From an uncultured bacterium (GTDB lineage Bacteria > Krumholzibacteriota > Krumholzibacteriia > LZORAL124-64-63), in NCBI GenBank assembly GCA_963732385.1, contig CAVSZB010000007.1, forward strand, positions 1,184,001 through 1,248,000: DNA of 64,000 nt, written 5' to 3'. Position numbers and translations under genes: made by a program. Shown here one piece after another: positions 6,863 through 15,094 of the stretch (within the stretch, counting starts at the first letter, position 1; each line of letters begins with the position of its first letter). Under the pieces are notes generated by a model. The model saw only the letters and a program-made list of their open reading frames with translations. It did not search any database and had not been told where the DNA came from.

Positions 6863-8104
6863 TCAGAATGCCGCGATCAACCCCACCGTCAACCGCGCCT
6901 TCTTTTCCTGCAGATCCCGCCCACCCTCGAGCATCAGGCGGACATTGCGCGCGACCAGATGATTCACGGTCAGCGATACGGTCTCCCGGTCGGCGCCCTC
7001 ATAGGTAGTCTCGGAGCCAGTGCCGTCATCATCGGATTCGACCAGGTTGTAGAGGACCGAGAAGGCCAGGCGGCCGTTCTCGCCCCGCGGAAACAGGTGC
7101 AGCTCCGCGAAGCCGCCCCGCGTGACTTGCGTGTTCTCGACGCCGACGAACCACGGATCATCATCCTCGCGGTAGAGGAACTGGGCGTTGAGCTGCGCCT
7201 TATCCCCCAGGTTCACCACCAGGTCCGGGCCGACGTAGAAGGTTTCGTTGGTGGCGCCGGCCAGCTCCACCTCGCCGTCGGGAACGTACTCGGTCGTGCG
7301 CCCCCAGTAGCCGAAGGCGCCAACCCGCACCGGTCCGCTCCAGCGCGAGGCGCGCGCGGCGACGTTCTTGTTGCGGTCGTCGTCGAAGCGCACGAAATCG
7401 GAGATCCCCTCCTCGCCCACCTCGCCGATCCCGTTGCCGTTGATGATCTGCGCCGAGAAATCGACGCCGCCTGGCAGGGCGCGCGACAGCACGATGCCCC
7501 GATCGTAAGTGAGGTTTACGGGCGAATCGCCGACCTTCGTCTTGTAGATCAGGTAATCGTAGCGCTCGAGGCGCAGCTCCCGCTTGAACAGCGGATCGCA
7601 CACCTGGAACTGGCCGGCCATCAGGGTGAAGCCGCTGCCCAGGATGTCGTTCACCTGGAGGTAGGCGTCCTCCAGGCCGGTCACCGCGCCATGCTCGGCC
7701 AGGAAATAGAAGTAGTAAGAAACCTGCCTCCCGATCGGGCCGCCTGAAAGCACCTTCCACACCCAGGGCGACTCGAAATCGGTGCGGGCGCGGGCATCCT
7801 CCTTCCAGGAGAGGAACCCCTCCATGCGCACCGCCAGCGGCAAATCGCGCGGCAGGGCCAGCAGCGGATCGCCCACGTCGTAGGTGGCGCGGGCCGGCTC
7901 CTGGGCCGCATCGAGCCGGAAACCCCTGGCGGCGAACTCTTCGCCGTACGGCTTGAGCCGGGGAAACGGCGCGTGACAGGTCGTGCAGGACATCTGGTAC
8001 TTGCGGGCGAAAGCCGGGATCGCGCCGGCGTCGTTCCAGGCGGACGCCAGGGCGAGCGTCAGGACACCGAGCATCAGGGCCGCGCGGCGGGCTCTCGGGT
8101 TCAT
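6863..8104 (-). CDS. outer-membrane beta-barrel/porin with N-terminal CxxCH (ExtI-like)
   Basis: signal peptide, then 'IPAFARKYQMSCTTCHAPFPRLKPYGEEF'; amphipathic strands; C-terminal Phe; GGAGGAGG RBS. Confidence 0.75.
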   Translation of the reverse strand: MNPRARRAALMLGVLTLALASAWNDAGAIPAFARKYQMSCTTCHAPFPRLKPYGEEFAARGFRLDAAQEPARATYDVGDPLLALPRDLPLAVRMEGFLSWKEDARARTDFESPWVWKVLSGGPIGRQVSYYFYFLAEHGAVTGLEDAYLQVNDILGSGFTLMAGQFQVCDPLFKRELRLERYDYLIYKTKVGDSPVNLTYDRGIVLSRALPGGVDFSAQIINGNGIGEVGEEGISDFVRFDDDRNKNVAARASRWSGPVRVGAFGYWGRTTEYVPDGEVELAGATNETFYVGPDLVVNLGDKAQLNAQFLYREDDDPWFVGVENTQVTRGGFAELHLFPRGENGRLAFSVLYNLVESDDDGTGSETTYEGADRETVSLTVNHLVARNVRLMLEGGRDLQEKKARLTVGLIAAF

Positions 8105-8124
8105 CGCGTGCCTCCTCCCCGTCC

Positions 8125-9483
8125 TCACAGGACGTTGAACGTGGTCGAGTGGGTGTTGATCAGGACCGGCTGCGACTCCTCGCGCGGCACCTTCAGGTGT
8201 TCGGCCACCGAGGAGACGAGGCGGGAGTACCACACTTCGGCCGTGATCGTGACCACCCCGGGCGCGACGTCGTTGGGCAGTTTCCAGCTGAAGGTTTCGT
8301 TCACCGCGGCGAGCGGCGCCAGCCGGTAGTCGGGACCGAAGGAGGCGGTGCCCCACTGCGCGACCGTCATCCGGCCCTGCGGATCGAGGTACGGCAGCCG
8401 GAAGATGCGGTCGCCCGCAGGCACCTCGCCGTCGCGCTTGAGCCCGGGAAAGCCGGCCACGCCGGTGATGTCGCCGATGTCCTGGTAGGCCATCGCCGTC
8501 GCCGAGGCGATCGTCATCTCCTCGCCGGCGAATCCCTTGGCGTCGACCGGCAGATGCCACGTCCGCCCGGCGGCATCGCGGGCCGTCACGTGCAGCCAGA
8601 GCACCCGTTCCTCGGCCGAGCCCGACGGGACCTTGTGGCCCGCCTTCGCATTGACCAGCACGGCGGTCAGCTTGACCGGGTCGCCCGGCTCCGCCTCGCG
8701 CGCCTCGGGGTGGATCCGCACCTCGACCACGCCGGCCAGCTTGCCGGGATCGTGCGCGCCGTGGAACAGGTGCTGGCGCACGTCGGGCAGCGCCTCGCTG
8801 ACAGCCGCGGCGTATCCGGCGGCGGGCGGCATGTGGCAGTCCTGGCAGACGATGCCACCCTTCCCCTGCGGCCCTTCCTTCCACTCCAGATGCGTCGACT
8901 TCACCCAGAGGCCCCACGGGTTCTTCTCGTTGTGGCAGGTGCCGCAGAACTCGGCGGTGCCGAGGAACGGATTGACCGCGATGCCATGATAGGGACTCTC
9001 GCGACCGGCACGGGTGCCCTGCTTCACGGATCCCGGCTCGCTGATCCAGTTGAAATTGAACGGCGTGTCGCCCGCGAAGCCGGTGATCGTGTGACAGAGA
9101 TCGCATGACACGCTCTCGTTGGCCCGACTGTTGGCCGCCGGATGCGGCGGCGGCACGTCGCCGGCCAGGAAGGCCAGCGGCGCGTGGCAGCCGTTGCAGC
9201 CGGCCTTCACGCCCGCCACCTTCATCTCCTTTTCAGCGTGCGGCACCGCGAGCGCGAAATACTCGATTTCGTCCCAGTGGTGTGTGTAAGCCTGCGACAT
9301 CATCGCCTGTTCGTGCTGCCGGGCGGCATCGACATGGCAGGTCGCGCAGGCCTGCGGACGCTCGTAGTCGTCGTACTTGCGACTGCCGAGCGCGTCATCC
9401 CCGGCCTTGGGTTGAGCCGATGCGACCACGGCGGCCAGCAGCAAAGGTGCGGAAACCATCAATGCGATCCTTGCGGCACGCAT
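8125..9483 (-). CDS. exported pentaheme cytochrome c (c554-like)
   Basis: signal peptide; CATCH, CNGCH, CDLCH, CGTCH, CQDCH; GGAGGAGGT RBS. Confidence 0.9.
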   Translation of the reverse strand: MRAARIALMVSAPLLLAAVVASAQPKAGDDALGSRKYDDYERPQACATCHVDAARQHEQAMMSQAYTHHWDEIEYFALAVPHAEKEMKVAGVKAGCNGCHAPLAFLAGDVPPPHPAANSRANESVSCDLCHTITGFAGDTPFNFNWISEPGSVKQGTRAGRESPYHGIAVNPFLGTAEFCGTCHNEKNPWGLWVKSTHLEWKEGPQGKGGIVCQDCHMPPAAGYAAAVSEALPDVRQHLFHGAHDPGKLAGVVEVRIHPEAREAEPGDPVKLTAVLVNAKAGHKVPSGSAEERVLWLHVTARDAAGRTWHLPVDAKGFAGEEMTIASATAMAYQDIGDITGVAGFPGLKRDGEVPAGDRIFRLPYLDPQGRMTVAQWGTASFGPDYRLAPLAAVNETFSWKLPNDVAPGVVTITAEVWYSRLVSSVAEHLKVPREESQPVLINTHSTTFNVL

Positions 9484-9669
9484 GAAATACCTCCTCCGGA
9501 AGTCGACACCGATTCGTGGCCGGGGATGTGCGGAGAATGTCCGGTCGATCGGGTGTTGTCAATGGCCGGGTGCCTCGTCAGCGACCGGGCCGGCTTGACA
9601 CCCCCGACGAACGATCGGAAATTGTGCGCAACGAATTCCCGCCCCCGACTCCGGACCACGAAGGATGCT

Positions 9670-9996
9670 GTGAACGCGGCCTCCGACACGCCGACCGGAA
9701 GCGCTCCCGGGCGCAGGCGCCGCCAGGCCACGGCTCTGGCGACGTGTCACCTGCTGCTGTTCGTCGTCCTGCCCATGGCGCACGCGGCGCTGCCGATACA
9801 CGACAGTTCCGCGGGCGCGCACGCCTGCCCCCTTTGCCAGAGCCTCCAGCGGGGGATCGACGCGCTTCCGACCGGAAACATCGACGCGGTCCAGGCGGCC
9901 CCGTTGGCCGCGTCGCTGGTCGAGCGACCCGCCGCCGCCCTCCAGTCCGACGACAACCACGACCCCGCCGCACCTCGGGCACCACCCCCCGCCTGA
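9670..9996 (+). CDS. DUF2946-like (CruR/CutF-type) leader peptide; start uncertain
   Basis: basic N-terminus, hydrophobic stretch, HACPLC, C-terminal PRAPPPA; GTG preceded by AAGGA; lies upstream of metal-uptake genes. Confidence 0.7.
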   Translation: MNAASDTPTGSAPGRRRRQATALATCHLLLFVVLPMAHAALPIHDSSAGAHACPLCQSLQRGIDALPTGNIDAVQAAPLAASLVERPAAALQSDDNHDPAAPRAPPPA

Positions 9997-10124
9997 CCTC
10001 CGGCCGCGCGTCAGCGCGCCGATCGGTTCCTGAGTCACCAGTCGCCGCCGCCTGGCGCCCCGGACCCCGCGTCCGCGCGTCACCACGGCTGTGCCCGCCA
10101 CTCCGGACCTGGAGGACAGGCCCC

Positions 10125-11267
10125 ATGCCTCGACGTATCCTGACGCCACTATTCGGCGTGCTGACACTCCTGCTGGCCGGCGCACCGGCGCTGGCCGGTG
10201 TGGCCAATCCCGACCTGTCGGCGATCGGTCAGCCGTTCCTGAGACTGACCACCGAGCCCGCCAACCCTGACCGCGACCGCCCGCGGATGGACCCCGGCGA
10301 AACCGAACTTGTCTTCGACGCCTTCCTGAACCCGTATGCCAGGGGCTGCTTCACCCTCGCGCTCGACGAGGAGGGGCTGGCGCTGGAGGAGGGCTACTTC
10401 ACGCTCCTGCGCGGACTGCCCGGTGGCCTGAACCTCAAGGGAGGCAAGTACCGCGTCGGCTTCGGCAAGCTCAACGCGGCCCACCCCCACACCTATCCAT
10501 TCTTCGAGCGATTTCGCGTGCTTTCGACCTATCTGCCTGGAGAAGAATCGTTTAACGAAACAGGAATCTCGCTGTCCGAGCGGCTGCCGAGCCCGGGCGA
10601 GTCCTCGCTCACGGCGTCGGTGGACTGGCTGCAGGGGGATTCCTTCCGGCGACCGCGCGAAGCGACCGTCGACGAAAACGATCCGCTGGCGACGGACGAG
10701 GCCGGCGACCGCGCGGGCGAGTCGCGGCCCGCGGTCCTGGGCCGGCTGAGCGCCTTCACCATGGTGGGCGAACGGTCCGGCCTCGAGCTGGGAATGTCGG
10801 CTGCGCACGGCACCAACAACGTTGCGGCCGCGACCCGCACAACGATCTGGGGCGCCGACGCCAAGGCGAAGCTCTGGACTTCCGAACGCGCCTGCCTGCT
10901 GCTGCAGGCCGAGGCGCTCAGGCTCCGACGCGACGACGCCGGTTGGGACGCCGAAACGGGCGCCTGCCAACTCGAGCGGGTCGACTCCTGGGGCTGGTAC
11001 GCCTTCGCCGACTGGAACCTCAGCCCGCGCTGGAATGTCGGCGGATCGTACGAACGGTTCCAGCGCGACGACGCAGCGCGGAAGTGGGACCACGCGGTCG
11101 GCCTCTTCGCCGGCTGCGCGTTGATGGAGGAAACCACCGTCTTCCGCCTCGGGTGGGAACGGTTCCAGGCCGCGACCGCGGCTGAAGAGCCGGTACCCGA
11201 GGCCATAGACACCTTCACGCTGCGGGTCATCTTCGCGATGGGCCCGCACAAGGCGCACCAGTTCTGA
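10125..11267 (+). CDS. outer-membrane metal-uptake beta-barrel (Zn-regulated receptor-like)
   Basis: GGAGG RBS, signal peptide, 'NPDLSAIG', 'FGKLNAAHPHTYPF', His-rich C-terminus 'GPHKAHQF'. Confidence 0.75.
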   Translation: MPRRILTPLFGVLTLLLAGAPALAGVANPDLSAIGQPFLRLTTEPANPDRDRPRMDPGETELVFDAFLNPYARGCFTLALDEEGLALEEGYFTLLRGLPGGLNLKGGKYRVGFGKLNAAHPHTYPFFERFRVLSTYLPGEESFNETGISLSERLPSPGESSLTASVDWLQGDSFRRPREATVDENDPLATDEAGDRAGESRPAVLGRLSAFTMVGERSGLELGMSAAHGTNNVAAATRTTIWGADAKAKLWTSERACLLLQAEALRLRRDDAGWDAETGACQLERVDSWGWYAFADWNLSPRWNVGGSYERFQRDDAARKWDHAVGLFAGCALMEETTVFRLGWERFQAATAAEEPVPEAIDTFTLRVIFAMGPHKAHQF

Positions 11268-11284
11268 CCGGGAGGAACCAGCCG

Positions 11285-12181
11285 ATGAATCCGAGAATCG
11301 TCCTGCGGACCGGCGCCGTCCTGGCGCTGGCGTTCATGCTGGCCGCGCCACCGCCGGCGGCGGCGAAAGTGAAGGTGGTGGCCTCGCTCACCGATCTCGG
11401 GTCGATCGCCGCCGCGGTGGGCGGCGACCAGATCGAGGTGACCGCCGTGGCGAGACCCGCGTCGGACGCGCACCGCGTCGAGGTGCTGCCCTCGTACATG
11501 GTGCGCGTGTCACGCGCGCAGTTGTATCTGAAAGTTGGGCTCGGCCTCGATCAGTGGGCCGATCAGATCATCGACGGCTCGCGCAACGGGAAACTCGAGG
11601 TGCTCGACTGCGCGCACCACATCGAACCGCTGGAAAAACCGGGAGGCAGGGTCGACGCCTCCCTTGGCGACGTCCACCCCGACGGCAACCCGCACTACTG
11701 GCTCGACCCGCGCAACGGCGCGCTCGTGGCGCGCGACATCGCCGAAGCGCTCGCCGGGCTCGATCCGGCGCATGCCGACGATTTCCGGCGGCGGGCCGCG
11801 GCGTTCGCCCGGAAATGCGCGGCGAGCCAGACTGCTGCCGCCGCCACGGTGGCCGCGCTGCCCGTGAAGGCCGTCATCACCTACCACTCGTCGTGGGTGT
11901 ACTTCGCCCACGCGACCGGTCTCGAGATCGCCGGCACGGTTGAGCCGGTGCCGGGCATCCCCCCGACCGCCCGTCACCTGCAGGAACTGGTTGGTCTCAT
12001 CCGTGAACAACAGGTGCCGGTCGTGCTGCAGGAACCATACTTTTCCAACGAGGCGCCCGCGTTTCTCGCTCGAGAGGCGGGGGTGAGGGTGGCGATGGTG
12101 TCGGCGTCATGCGACGACGTCACGCCGGACAGCTACCTCGCCCATTTCAACCACGTGGTCGAACTGATCGCCGGGCGCTGA
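11285..12181 (+). CDS. Zn/Mn ABC substrate-binding protein (ZnuA/TroA family)
   Basis: 'DAHRVE', 'GDVHPDGNPHYWLDP', 'TYHSSWVYF', 'EPVPGIPPT'. Confidence 0.9.
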   Translation: MNPRIVLRTGAVLALAFMLAAPPPAAAKVKVVASLTDLGSIAAAVGGDQIEVTAVARPASDAHRVEVLPSYMVRVSRAQLYLKVGLGLDQWADQIIDGSRNGKLEVLDCAHHIEPLEKPGGRVDASLGDVHPDGNPHYWLDPRNGALVARDIAEALAGLDPAHADDFRRRAAAFARKCAASQTAAAATVAALPVKAVITYHSSWVYFAHATGLEIAGTVEPVPGIPPTARHLQELVGLIREQQVPVVLQEPYFSNEAPAFLAREAGVRVAMVSASCDDVTPDSYLAHFNHVVELIAGR

Positions 12182-12251
12182 GCGCCCCGTCCGCGCGGCG
12201 GGAAGCGGAACGACCCGCCTCCGCCGCACCACAGCTTCCCGGGGAGTGACC

Positions 12252-13157
12252 ATGGAGGCCCTGCAACTGCCCTTCTTCCGCACCGCCCTGTTGGCGAGTT
12301 TCATCCTGGCCGGCATCCACGCCTACCTCGGTTTCCATGTGGTGCGCCGCGGCGTGATCTTCGTCGACCTCGCGCTGGCGCAGATGGCGGCACTGGGCGT
12401 GGCGGTGGCGGTCGTTCTCAATCGTCACGAAAATCCCCTTCAGACCTACGCCCTGGCGCTGGCCATGACGCTGATCGGCGCGGCCAGCTTCGCCTGGCTG
12501 CGGGGGCAGGAGCGGCGGCACGTGCCGCTGGAGGCGTTCATCGGGATCGTCTTCGCCACCGCGCAGGCGCTGGTCTTCCTGATCCTGGAAAAGAGTCCGG
12601 CCGGACCGGAGCATCTGAAGGAGACGCTGGTGGGCTCCCTGTTCACCGCGGACCCGCGCCACGTCTGGAAGACAGCCATCCTCTACGCCGTGATCGGCCT
12701 CGCCCACTGGCTGCTGCGACGCCCGTTCTTCGAGATCACGAACGACGCCGAGGGAGCCCGCCTGCGCGGACGGAACCTGTTCCTGTGGGACTTCCTCTTC
12801 TACGCGATCTTCGGCTGCGTCGTCACGTCGTCGGTCCAGATTGCCGGCGTGCTGCTCGTGTTCGGCCTGCTGGTGATCCCGGCGGTGGCCGGTCTGATGA
12901 CGACCTCGCGCACCGGACCGGCGCTCGCCGTGGGCTGGGGGTTCGGATTCCTGGCCTGCCTGACCGGCCTGTGGGGATCGGTGCGGCTCGACCTGCCGGC
13001 GGCGCCGAGCATTCTCCTGGCGCTGAGCGGCCTGCTGGTGCTGCTCGGCCCCGGCCTGGCGCTGCGGCGCGGATGCGACCGGGATCAGGCGTCGGCAAGC
13101 CTCGCGAGGGCAGCGTTGAGGTCCGACACGCCTTCGCGCCGACGTCCCTCCATGTAG
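12252..13157 (+). CDS. metal ABC transporter permease (ZnuB/ABC-3 family)
   Basis: 'HAYLGFHVVRRGVIFVDLALAQ', 'GVLLVFGLLVIPA', multiple TM helices. Confidence 0.85.
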   Translation: MEALQLPFFRTALLASFILAGIHAYLGFHVVRRGVIFVDLALAQMAALGVAVAVVLNRHENPLQTYALALAMTLIGAASFAWLRGQERRHVPLEAFIGIVFATAQALVFLILEKSPAGPEHLKETLVGSLFTADPRHVWKTAILYAVIGLAHWLLRRPFFEITNDAEGARLRGRNLFLWDFLFYAIFGCVVTSSVQIAGVLLVFGLLVIPAVAGLMTTSRTGPALAVGWGFGFLACLTGLWGSVRLDLPAAPSILLALSGLLVLLGPGLALRRGCDRDQASASLARAALRSDTPSRRRPSM

Positions 13158-15094
13158 TACCGGAGCACGGCGTCGGTGCCCGAGGCGCGCAGCATGAACC
13201 ACTGTCCGTCGAACTCGATCAGGGTGCCGTCGCCGGCCCAGAAGATCCTCCGCACGGGCGGCAGCGGCGTGCCGGCCGGCAGTCGCGAGCGAAGAGCCGT
13301 TTCCGCCGCGGCCGGTGTCATCGCCTCGAGGGAGCGGAAGTAAGCCACGGTCGCTTCCTTCTTCGCATTGCCAACGGCGCGGGCCGCGTCGCGCGCAGCT
13401 CCGCGCAGCGACTCGTCGGCCAGGGTGACGTCACGACGTTCGTAGAAACGGTGCGTGATCCCGTAGTGATCGAGACGATCCAGATAGTAACGCGCGAAGC
13501 TGCTCCCCTCAAGATGCAGCCGGGCCGCCAGCGCCAGCGACAGCACGCCGACCTGCATGCCGTCCTTCTCCTTCGGCGCGAGGGAACGGGCGCCGTCGTG
13601 ACAGCTGGCGAGCCAGTCCCCGTAGCCCATTGCCGCGCCGCCGCTCTCCTCGGCCATGATCAGCAGCCGCGGCCGGGGGCCGAACTCCGTGGCGACCCCT
13701 GTCGTGTCGACGGCGCGCGCGGCGACATCGCCGGCGTCATCGTCGGCGAGCTGGTCCTCGAGGTCGCGCACGAGCGCGGCGAAGTGCTTGAAGCCGACCG
13801 GCACGCGGAATGTCCTGAGCGCCGTCCCGTGCCGACGGTTGAACGCCTCGGCAAGCTCGCCGATGCTGCGGCTCGTCGGCCAGGTGGTGGCAACGATCCA
13901 GTCGCGCGTCGCCAGATCCCCGGTCGCCTGCAGGCTTTCGAGCCGGAGCGCCGTCAGCATGAAGTAGATCTGGTTCGGCTTGAAGAACACCAGGCAGCGG
14001 CCCGCGTCGAGTGCGTCGACCTCGAGGCCCGCGGCCACGGCGGACGCCGCGAGATCGGCCGGCGCGGTGGTGACCATGTTGAAACGATCGCCGTCGGGAT
14101 CCCAGAGGAAGAAGACGTGCGCGCGTTCGTCGCGCAGCAGGCGCTGCGCTCCGACGTTCTTGTAGACCTGCGACTTGCCCGGATCGACGCCATGGTTGAC
14201 GCCATCGAGCGTGCCGATGCCGTAGTAATCGGACCGTTCCGCGAAATGGGTGAAGAAGACAGCGCCCGCCGGATCGCCCGCGGACAAGCCCCCCTCAACG
14301 CCGGTCGGCGACGGGGCCACGCCCAGGCCCAGGCCGGCGAAAACGCGGAGCGCCGTCGCCCCCATCGAACCCCCCTCGCAGCCGAAGGCGGCCCGGAAAC
14401 CGGCATCCGCAGCGGCGCGCACGTCGTCGAGCAACGCGGTCGGCACGATGCCGCGCAGCGCGGTGACATAGTCTTCCACCGGATCGAAGTCGCGCCGGAT
14501 GAGCGGATCCGCGGCGGACGCCAGGCGCACCTCCAGCCCCTCGGTCGAGGCGCGCGCGGCCAGGGCGCGCACCCGGTCGGCGATCGCGTCGGCCAGTTCG
14601 AGCAGCTGGCCGCCGCTGTCGTCCATCGGCTTCCAGCCCCCCTTGTAATTCTGGCTGTGCGACGCGGTGAAATTCTCCCCTCCGGCCAGTTCCTCGCAGA
14701 AGACGCCGAACGAGGAGAGCCAGATCGGCGTCGTGGGCTGCGCCGGCGGGCGCAGGCGGACCGCGATGCCGTGCGCCGCGTAGATCCGCGCCGCCAGGTC
14801 GATGAACGCCGGCGTGTGCGGGCGCACCTCGCCACCGACGTGCAGTTCGTCGAGCCCTTCCTCGAGCGCCAGCTGGGCGCGGGCCTCGAGCACGAGCGCC
14901 AGCGTGAGGCTGTTGAACGGAACGTCGAGACTGTGCGGGTCGTCGGGATCGAGCAGGTCCCGCCAGCCGGCGGTGCCGAGCTGGAATTCGGACGCCCAGG
15001 CCAGGAGACCCGCGCGCGCAGCGAGCGCGGGGGTGATGGCTACAACCTCGGCGCGGACGGCGCCGGGGGTAAACAGGGACAGGCTCGCGCTCAT
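13085..15094 (-). CDS. alpha-D-phosphohexomutase (PGM/PMM superfamily), divergent
   Basis: 'GTAGWR', phosphoserine loop 'TASHS', 'DPDGDR', 'VGFK', 'EESGG', 'RASGT'. Confidence 0.8.
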   Translation of the reverse strand: MSASLSLFTPGAVRAEVVAITPALAARAGLLAWASEFQLGTAGWRDLLDPDDPHSLDVPFNSLTLALVLEARAQLALEEGLDELHVGGEVRPHTPAFIDLAARIYAAHGIAVRLRPPAQPTTPIWLSSFGVFCEELAGGENFTASHSQNYKGGWKPMDDSGGQLLELADAIADRVRALAARASTEGLEVRLASAADPLIRRDFDPVEDYVTALRGIVPTALLDDVRAAADAGFRAAFGCEGGSMGATALRVFAGLGLGVAPSPTGVEGGLSAGDPAGAVFFTHFAERSDYYGIGTLDGVNHGVDPGKSQVYKNVGAQRLLRDERAHVFFLWDPDGDRFNMVTTAPADLAASAVAAGLEVDALDAGRCLVFFKPNQIYFMLTALRLESLQATGDLATRDWIVATTWPTSRSIGELAEAFNRRHGTALRTFRVPVGFKHFAALVRDLEDQLADDDAGDVAARAVDTTGVATEFGPRPRLLIMAEESGGAAMGYGDWLASCHDGARSLAPKEKDGMQVGVLSLALAARLHLEGSSFARYYLDRLDHYGITHRFYERRDVTLADESLRGAARDAARAVGNAKKEATVAYFRSLEAMTPAAAETALRSRLPAGTPLPPVRRIFWAGDGTLIEFDGQWFMLRASGTDAVLRYYMEGRRREGVSDLNAALARLADA

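Follow-up and report, generated by a model that had tools for sequence, protein, structure and literature searches.

The window, by which the whole analysed stretch of 64,000 nucleotides is meant, contains a short ORF upstream of an operon for a porin-like barrel, a ZnuA-type solute-binding protein (SBP) and a ZnuB-type permease. This leader is very likely an arrest-based regulator. Occlusion of the porin Shine-Dalgarno (SD) sequence is probably one of its outputs, and zinc is, on comparative grounds, rather likely to be its main signal. The preferred explanation as a whole has slightly better than even confidence: ribosome arrest on the leader, released by metal, would allow translation of the porin, ZnuA-type and ZnuB-type genes under zinc scarcity. 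The features of the locus are as follows.

9595-9600 and 9618-9623, plus strand: predicted sigma70-type promoter (-35 TTGACA, 17-nt spacer, -10-like GAAATT)
9661-9665, plus strand: likely SD sequence of the leader, AAGGA, read off the sequence, ending 5 nt 5′ of the GTG
9670 (GTG) to 9994-9996 (TGA), plus strand: leader ORF of 108 aa with CruR/CutF-like arrest-peptide architecture, C-terminal PRAPPPA and homologous leaders
9733-9786, plus strand: signal-like hydrophobic segment, residues 22-39, from a hydropathy scan and an AlphaFold2 helix
9778-9837, plus strand: putative metal site, His38, His44, His51 and Cys53-x-x-Cys56, from a 58-sequence alignment
9826-9837, plus strand: CPLC, residues 53-56
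9939-9945, plus strand: second stretch, within the ORF, that pairs with the porin SD when the ORF is ribosome-free (partition-function partners)
9976-9987, plus strand: RAPP arrest motif, predicted P-site codon 9982-9984 and A-site codon 9985-9987
9991-10003, plus strand: 5′ arm (anti-SD) made of the last codon, the stop and CCTCCGG, invariant in three genus members
10101-10114, plus strand: weak local hairpin over the porin SD, -4.1 kcal/mol
10109-10121, plus strand: 3′ arm with the porin SD (GGAGG 10111-10115)
10125-11267, plus strand: porin-like outer-membrane barrel, 380 aa, ATG start, with conserved HPH and GPHK motifs
11285-12181, plus strand: ZnuA-family solute-binding protein (PF01297, E 1e-55) with His63, His137 and His201
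12246-13157, plus strand: ZnuB-type ABC-3 permease (PF00950, E 7.5e-38), with no ATPase gene 3′ of it

A sequence-only reading of this DNA had described a short ORF with a signal-like segment, a His/Cys site and a C-terminal PRAPPPA, and this ORF was confirmed at 9670-9996. Its N-terminus is Arg-rich ahead of the hydrophobic segment, 46 residues separate CxxC from RAPP, and RAPP lies two residues from the C-terminal end. The register of the P- and A-site codons is borrowed from the toeprinting of CruR (PMC12992588). Within the window genome, 809 frames carry R[AGS]PP near the stop, four of them together with a hydrophobic segment, and when a His/CxxC site is added only the window leader is left. 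The AlphaFold2 model of the leader (pTM 0.41) shows two helices, an extended linker and no defined metal site. The 5′ UTR is short, and the -35/-10 layout at 9595-9623 is shared with both congeners of the window genome; a standard promoter scan of the locus called no promoter. Six terminator-like matches were returned by a standard scan, none of them within the 128-nt leader-porin intergenic region. An Rfam search of 9000-13500 gave no family at gathering level and two chance matches only, and thus no known riboswitch is present at the locus. Public sequencing runs cover small shares of the stretch (0.14 at most); in one RNA run, contigs of a relative span the leader and all three genes, although contigs cannot show transcription.

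The conservation of the leader was followed through 110 porin loci, of which nine were dropped for too little upstream DNA and six as duplicates, leaving 95 distinct loci. The concern that the ORF might not be conserved, raised together with the sequence-only reading, does not hold, since a signal-like leader with a His/Cys site and R[AGS]PP lies 5′ of the porin gene in 93 of the 95. The two exceptions are an RDPP variant (L027) and a gene without a leader (L021). In 20 distant, hand-picked regions a leader is present at 20 of 21 porin genes, the exception being the L021 gene again. For the statistics one further locus with an unclear porin start was excluded (n = 92). The mean column identity among 58 aligned leaders is only 21%; nevertheless, Arg, Pro and Pro of the motif and the second Cys are invariant, and conservation reaches 90% or more in the column of the first Cys and in two His columns. 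The distance from the first Cys to the Arg has a median of 48 residues (5-95% range 46-50, n = 89 leaders), with a median of 44 intervening. Among the 92 leaders the arrest motif is RAPP in 65, RGPP in 21 and RSPP in six, and the metal motif, preceded by a median of four His, is CxxC in 77, CxCxxxH in seven, CxxxH in five and another in three. Some distant copies have a single Cys or lack Cys altogether.

A promoter-like site, in a scan made for this analysis, precedes 71 of the 92 family loci. In 41 of these 71 an in-frame ATG or GTG follows the -10 box by 4-9 nt (e.g., L059, L067, L079), which suggests that many leader genes of the family are translated from leaderless mRNAs. A shared Zur/Fur-type operator was sought upstream of the leaders and not found; only -35-like hexamers were enriched.

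In the known system CruR (Bp2923, DUF2946/PF11162), 45 residues lie between CxxC and RAPP and this spacing is reported to be required (PMC9426467). In RAPP arrest the two prolines occupy the P and A sites, and such arrest has been reported for CruR itself (PMC12992588). The CruR arrest is described as metal-released and CruR as acting through Rho, with an only moderate effect of zinc on the output. The window leader resembles CruR in its putative export signal, CxxC, spacing of about 45 residues and RAPP near the C-terminus. Furthermore, both head a metal-import operon with an outer-membrane transporter, a long intergenic region and a predicted metal-released stall. Judged by its sequence, the leader appears to follow the layout of the RAPP class, a small secretory-type ORF with RAPP near its C-terminus upstream of a putatively regulated gene. 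The earlier assignment to DUF2946 has to be softened to DUF2946-like. CxxC, the C-terminal RAPP and the spacing of about 45 residues are all present, but the leader scores 12.1 bits (E 0.34) against a Pfam cut-off of 23.7. Among the homologous leaders one of 57 passes the cut-off (23.9 bits), and weak matches (E ≤ 1) occur in 34 of 58; in the ESM Atlas, the rank-2 match of the leader (score 0.95) is a cluster of DUF2946 proteins in which 48% of the members carry the family. In contrast to CruR, the leader family is His-rich and tolerates loss of Cys. The leader is the first gene of its operon, but this operon is porin-ZnuA-ZnuB and not one of copper homeostasis, and the target of CruR is a TonB transporter. 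Comparative evidence points to SD occlusion here as opposed to Rho in CruR, and the metal is likely zinc here as opposed to copper.

CutF from Rhodobacter capsulatus (PMC9973294; bioRxiv 10.1101/2025.02.05.636593) is reported to be an exported leader, in which the stalled ribosome melts an SD structure. CutF, however, is described with CxxxC, a PPP stall, induction by copper and a detoxifying oxidase, whereas the window leader has RAPP and an importer. Since the window target is an importer, the predicted polarity is opposite to that of CutF. By analogy, the leader is a combination of CruR-like motifs, spacing and importer target with what would be a CutF-like output.

The operon itself begins with the 380-aa porin-like protein, for which a Pfam search gave no match. 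Its AlphaFold2 model is a beta-barrel (pLDDT 82.6), and Foldseek lists porins and AlgE/OprP-type channels as its best matches. The protein is a homolog of the Vibrio 'zinc-regulated TonB-dependent receptor' (Omr), with 24% identity in V. campbellii and a profile E of 1e-31. The name 'TonB-dependent receptor' was ruled out for the window protein by its size and its fold, which is not a 22-stranded barrel with a plug. The best solved relative of the SBP is the zinc-uptake binding protein 2ov1, with which the three His ligands align, like in Synechocystis ZnuA; Vibrio ZnuA2 is a nearer relative of the SBP than are E. coli ZnuA and the other two SBPs of the genome. SBP and permease follow the porin, with no ATPase motif, in all 51 loci that extend at least 4.2 kb past the porin start. 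Two other ZnuA/ZnuB-type systems with ATPases are present in the window genome, and the window operon may borrow the ATPase of one of them. A ZnuA/ZnuB-type import operon, as claimed earlier, therefore stands by the PF01297 and PF00950 matches, but its first gene encodes a porin-like barrel, which that reading did not name, and an ATPase gene is missing. In Vibrio, too, there is a porin-SBP-permease operon without an ATPase gene.

The porin occurs in 139 of 208 genomes of the phylum. A homology search with the window porin gave 906 homologs, and none of the 120 matches listed has an informative name; the homolog records belong mostly to Ca. Eisenbacteria and Krumholzibacteriia, with some Fibrobacteria and others. 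A plasmid search with the porin gave no matches. On the minus strand (6863-9483), a multiheme cytochrome c gene (8125-9483, weak ExtKL-like match) diverges from the locus, and the minus-strand genes beyond it end in a probable outer-membrane barrel.

Zinc is favored because of a homologous Vibrio operon, a leaderless copy of the porin and the anatomy of a second leader family. In the V. campbellii record, homologs of all three genes are present in the same order and without an ATPase gene (24, 28 and 30% identity, each the best among the few proteins compared). In contrast to the window, this operon has no RAPP leader and is preceded by TGTTAT-N3-ATAACA, which we take to be a Zur-type box. The V. 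parahaemolyticus operon omr-znuA2-znuB2 is reported to belong to the Zur regulon and to be induced 283-1034-fold in zinc limitation (PMC9817125). The histidines of its SBP (VPA1307) are described as required for growth in TPEN, and motifs taken from the primers of that study match the V. campbellii protein (PMC3794297). Thus the inference that the metal is not copper (but Zn, Ni or Co) gains comparative support from a homologous, Zur-boxed zinc operon. The second case is G015 (L150:5475-11056), in which porin-SBP pairs stand in tandem. Here, the first porin copy is without a leader, and a Fur-family gene (PF01475, 42.7 bits) runs divergently from it, with two boxes of the form TGCAA-N5-TTGCA, while the neighboring copy has a His-rich RAPP leader without CxxC. 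In V. campbellii and G015 a metal-repressor arrangement therefore occupies the usual place of the leader, which are two cases and not a statistic. The window genome contains one clear Fur-family gene, adjoining feoB. The NCBIfam Zur model exceeded its cut-off in none of 41 family genomes, but it did so in only one of 14 controls, and hence the absence of Zur cannot be concluded.

As a separate observation, the same genome contains elsewhere (L034:1083-1376, contig C7) an ORF of 97 aa that is ribbon-helix-helix-like at its N-terminus and has a tail resembling a Cys/His zinc finger. It has a weak aCcr1-family match (E 2.6e-5) and stands directly 5′ of a complete ZnuA-type ABC operon; from its sequence, the product is a candidate zinc-sensing repressor.

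The third line of evidence is DUF2607. The gene zrgD, encoding a DUF2607 protein, heads the Zur-regulated Vibrio zinc operon zrgDABCE (PMC9817125). The ZrgA family is described as zinc-binding and as preceded by DUF2607 RAPP leaders. In the supplement of PMC12992588, 14 of the 15 rows listed have a DUF2607 protein with a signal, a His cluster, a Cys and RAPP followed by DUF2796, and DUF2796 is enriched behind RAPP leaders (137 vs. 2). As far as described there, ZrgD is like the window leader in its length of about 95 aa, signal, His cluster with Cys, distance of about 47 residues to RAPP and position at the head of a zinc-acquisition operon, and it resembles the HxxCxxFH leader variants at L008 and L018-L022. 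Unlike the window leader, ZrgD precedes DUF2796 and is also under Zur, and the accessible part of PMC9817125 does not describe it as a regulator. The profile PF10795 (DUF2607, cut-off 24 bits) had no match over its cut-off in the window genome, with one weak match elsewhere that is not the leader, and was absent among the best 25 of the 28 families matched by 58 homologous leaders. By the published descriptions, a proven zinc operon is headed by what looks like a RAPP arrest leader of the DUF2607 family, which offers a cultured system.

The best surviving alternative is the same stalling switch with copper, nickel or cobalt as the signal and an operon that imports this metal, which we consider unlikely, though not negligible. 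The TGCAA-N5-TTGCA boxes of G015 presumably resemble the Mn/Ni boxes of the Fur family no less than those for zinc, and the other complete ZnuA-type ABC operon of the genome could cover zinc. The prevalence of CxxC (77 of 92 leaders), at the same spacing as in copper-sensing CruR, would also fit, as would the His-only CutF-like leaders that have been tied to Ni/Co genes (PMC9973294). Zinc is favored over these metals by the Zur-like box of the homologous Vibrio operon and that operon's reported induction under zinc limitation (PMC9817125), by the resemblance of the three-His site of the SBP to Synechocystis ZnuA and by the existence of Cys-free leaders. A caution on the zinc reading is that the Vibrio operon shares no more than 24-30% identity with the window operon and that CxxC, the copper ligand of CruR, is found in most leaders.

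Turning to the output, the sequence-only reading had paired CCTCCGG (9997-10003) with CTGGAGG (10109-10115). Both elements are exact, and the pairing is longer than had been claimed. The 7-bp duplex has -10.5 kcal/mol, a value equalled by 0.09% of sampled window 7-mers, and 9991-10003 forms 12 pairs and one A.A mismatch with 10109-10121 (-20.6 kcal/mol). No 13-mer in a sample of about 9,100 from the window reached this energy against the SD arm. The position of CCTCCGG after the stop holds for the window, but it is genus-specific; the anti-SD of the family lies mostly on the Pro-Pro codons or across the stop. The local hairpin proposed to mask the RBS does exist at 10101-10114, but it is marginal, and the two congeners do not keep all of its pairs constant.

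Across the family, the first Pro of RAPP is encoded by CCT in 52 of 92 loci, compared with 6.4 expected from the Pro usage of each porin gene and with 10.6% CCT at the other leader prolines; among cluster representatives (70% porin identity) it is 38 of 65. This places CCTCC, the anti-SD, on the predicted P- and A-site codons. Selection for slow decoding could be an alternative cause of this codon bias. Duplexes of stall region and SD average -20.7 kcal/mol for cognate and -17.4 kcal/mol for non-cognate partners. The residual is negative in 76 of 92 loci, which was reached in 0 of 20,000 permutations, and an upstream control arm gave -0.2. For the 65 representatives, the footprint-only arm gave a residual of -1.8 (negative in 49), and the control arms -0.64 (the nearer one, p 0.035) and +0.11. 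Single-column covariation was found in 21 of 37 (p 5e-5), and in 12 of 25 (p 0.058) after thinning of kin. A relocated anti-SD as compensation in loci without CCT was not significant (18/40 vs. 20/52, p 0.67). Conservation, fixed Cys-to-RAPP spacing, CCT bias and cognate pairing together lend comparative support to both the arrest-leader and the anti-SD reading.

Folding with and without a ribosome footprint, the check proposed for the window, gave a divided result. In the family, the modeled stall lowers the SD opening energy by a mean of 1.8 kcal/mol vs. 0.1 kcal/mol with a control footprint (n = 91), which lies farther from the SD and is thus not a matched control. In the window, however, a lone footprint leaves the modeled opening energy practically unchanged (15.8 to 15.9 kcal/mol), and it is about 11.7 kcal/mol when the upstream ORF is blocked as well; the lone-footprint figures of the congeners in the same model are 5.5 and 2.7 kcal/mol. 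The missing effect is attributed to 9939-9945, which can take over the SD, and to the position of CCTCCGG, 15-21 nt past the first base of the P site and thereby at or beyond the edge of the footprint. The 12-bp helix is only partly under the predicted footprint, and CCTCCGG is still 94% paired when only the bases before 9997 are removed.

This weak footprint effect in the window would also fit a stall which governs Rho-dependent transcription termination as in CruR, SD pairing being secondary. The C/G ratio is 2.0 in 9900-9996 (family median 1.67 vs. 1.06 in the porin gene) and the genome encodes a Rho_N domain, so Rho may share the work; the 128-nt intergenic region is also similar to the 162 nt reported for CruR. 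However, Rho control does not predict a locus-specific pairing of stall site and downstream SD, the C-richness is partly due to the Pro/Ala-rich linker, and both outputs can coexist. Rho as the governing output is therefore improbable.

Mechanistically, the preferred zinc-released switch would work as follows. The leader would be translated and its hydrophobic N-terminus would insert into the Sec channel, and the ribosome would then stall with the RAPP prolines in the P and A sites, as judged from CruR. The stalled ribosome, and any queued behind it, would cover the anti-SD strand (9991-9995 and 9939-9945), the long helix on the porin SD would loosen and the operon would be translated; here the pairing is shown by covariation, while the opening is modeled only. 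With the fixed spacing of about 46 residues, the His/CxxC site would already have left the exit tunnel and would probably be located close to where the translocon opens into the periplasm. Plentiful zinc would bind at this site, local folding would pull on the chain, and the ribosome would be released from the stall and terminate. The helix would re-form and uptake would be switched off, possibly with help from Rho.

A leader at the translocon might also be a SecM-like monitor of secretion or of the periplasmic disulfide state instead of a metal. RAPP peptides are reported to arrest intrinsically and to be released by pulling, some of them preceding thiol-redox genes (PMC12992588), and a disulfide is possible at CxxC. 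This is nevertheless very unlikely, as the His cluster is conserved, variants with one or no Cys occur, a metal importer lies downstream in 51 of 51 long loci, and a Zur-like box or a Fur-family gene replaces the leader elsewhere. Least probable of all is the opposite polarity, in which bound metal would lengthen the stall and thereby switch the genes on, as reported for metal-induced CutF, which has the same SD-unmasking output and, like the window leader, ends in a PPP run, because the regulated genes encode an importer, the Vibrio homolog is reportedly repressed by zinc, and motif and spacing of the leader are of the CruR type.

In literature searches no paper on a zinc-responsive RAPP leader was found, although the neighbor list of PMC9973294 may hold ZnuA-type cases. 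Non-copper CutF-like leaders, for Ni/Co, have already been proposed there, and PMC12992588 lists pairings of RAPP leaders with zinc genes in its supplementary tables, while zinc is never mentioned in its main text. With an even chance of being right, a wider proposal can be made: zinc-sensing arrest peptides would be a widespread class standing in for Zur, in which the ribosome reads periplasmic zinc via a nascent His/Cys site and the Pro-Pro codons of the stall double as the anti-SD of the uptake operon. This class would span the phylum of the window genome and its neighbors, often as leaderless uORFs, and would include DUF2607/ZrgD of cultured gammaproteobacteria.

Bacterial zinc uptake is usually described as being under cytoplasmic transcription factors such as Zur. 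If the preferred reading is true, a nascent-peptide switch would add a translational, possibly periplasm-facing, sensing of zinc, and a switch type known for sensing copper would be extended to a new metal. It would also give a function to an uncalled family of small genes that precedes nearly every copy of the porin. The natural variants with CxxC, CxCxxxH, His only or no Cys would then be available for studying how metal releases the RAPP stall.
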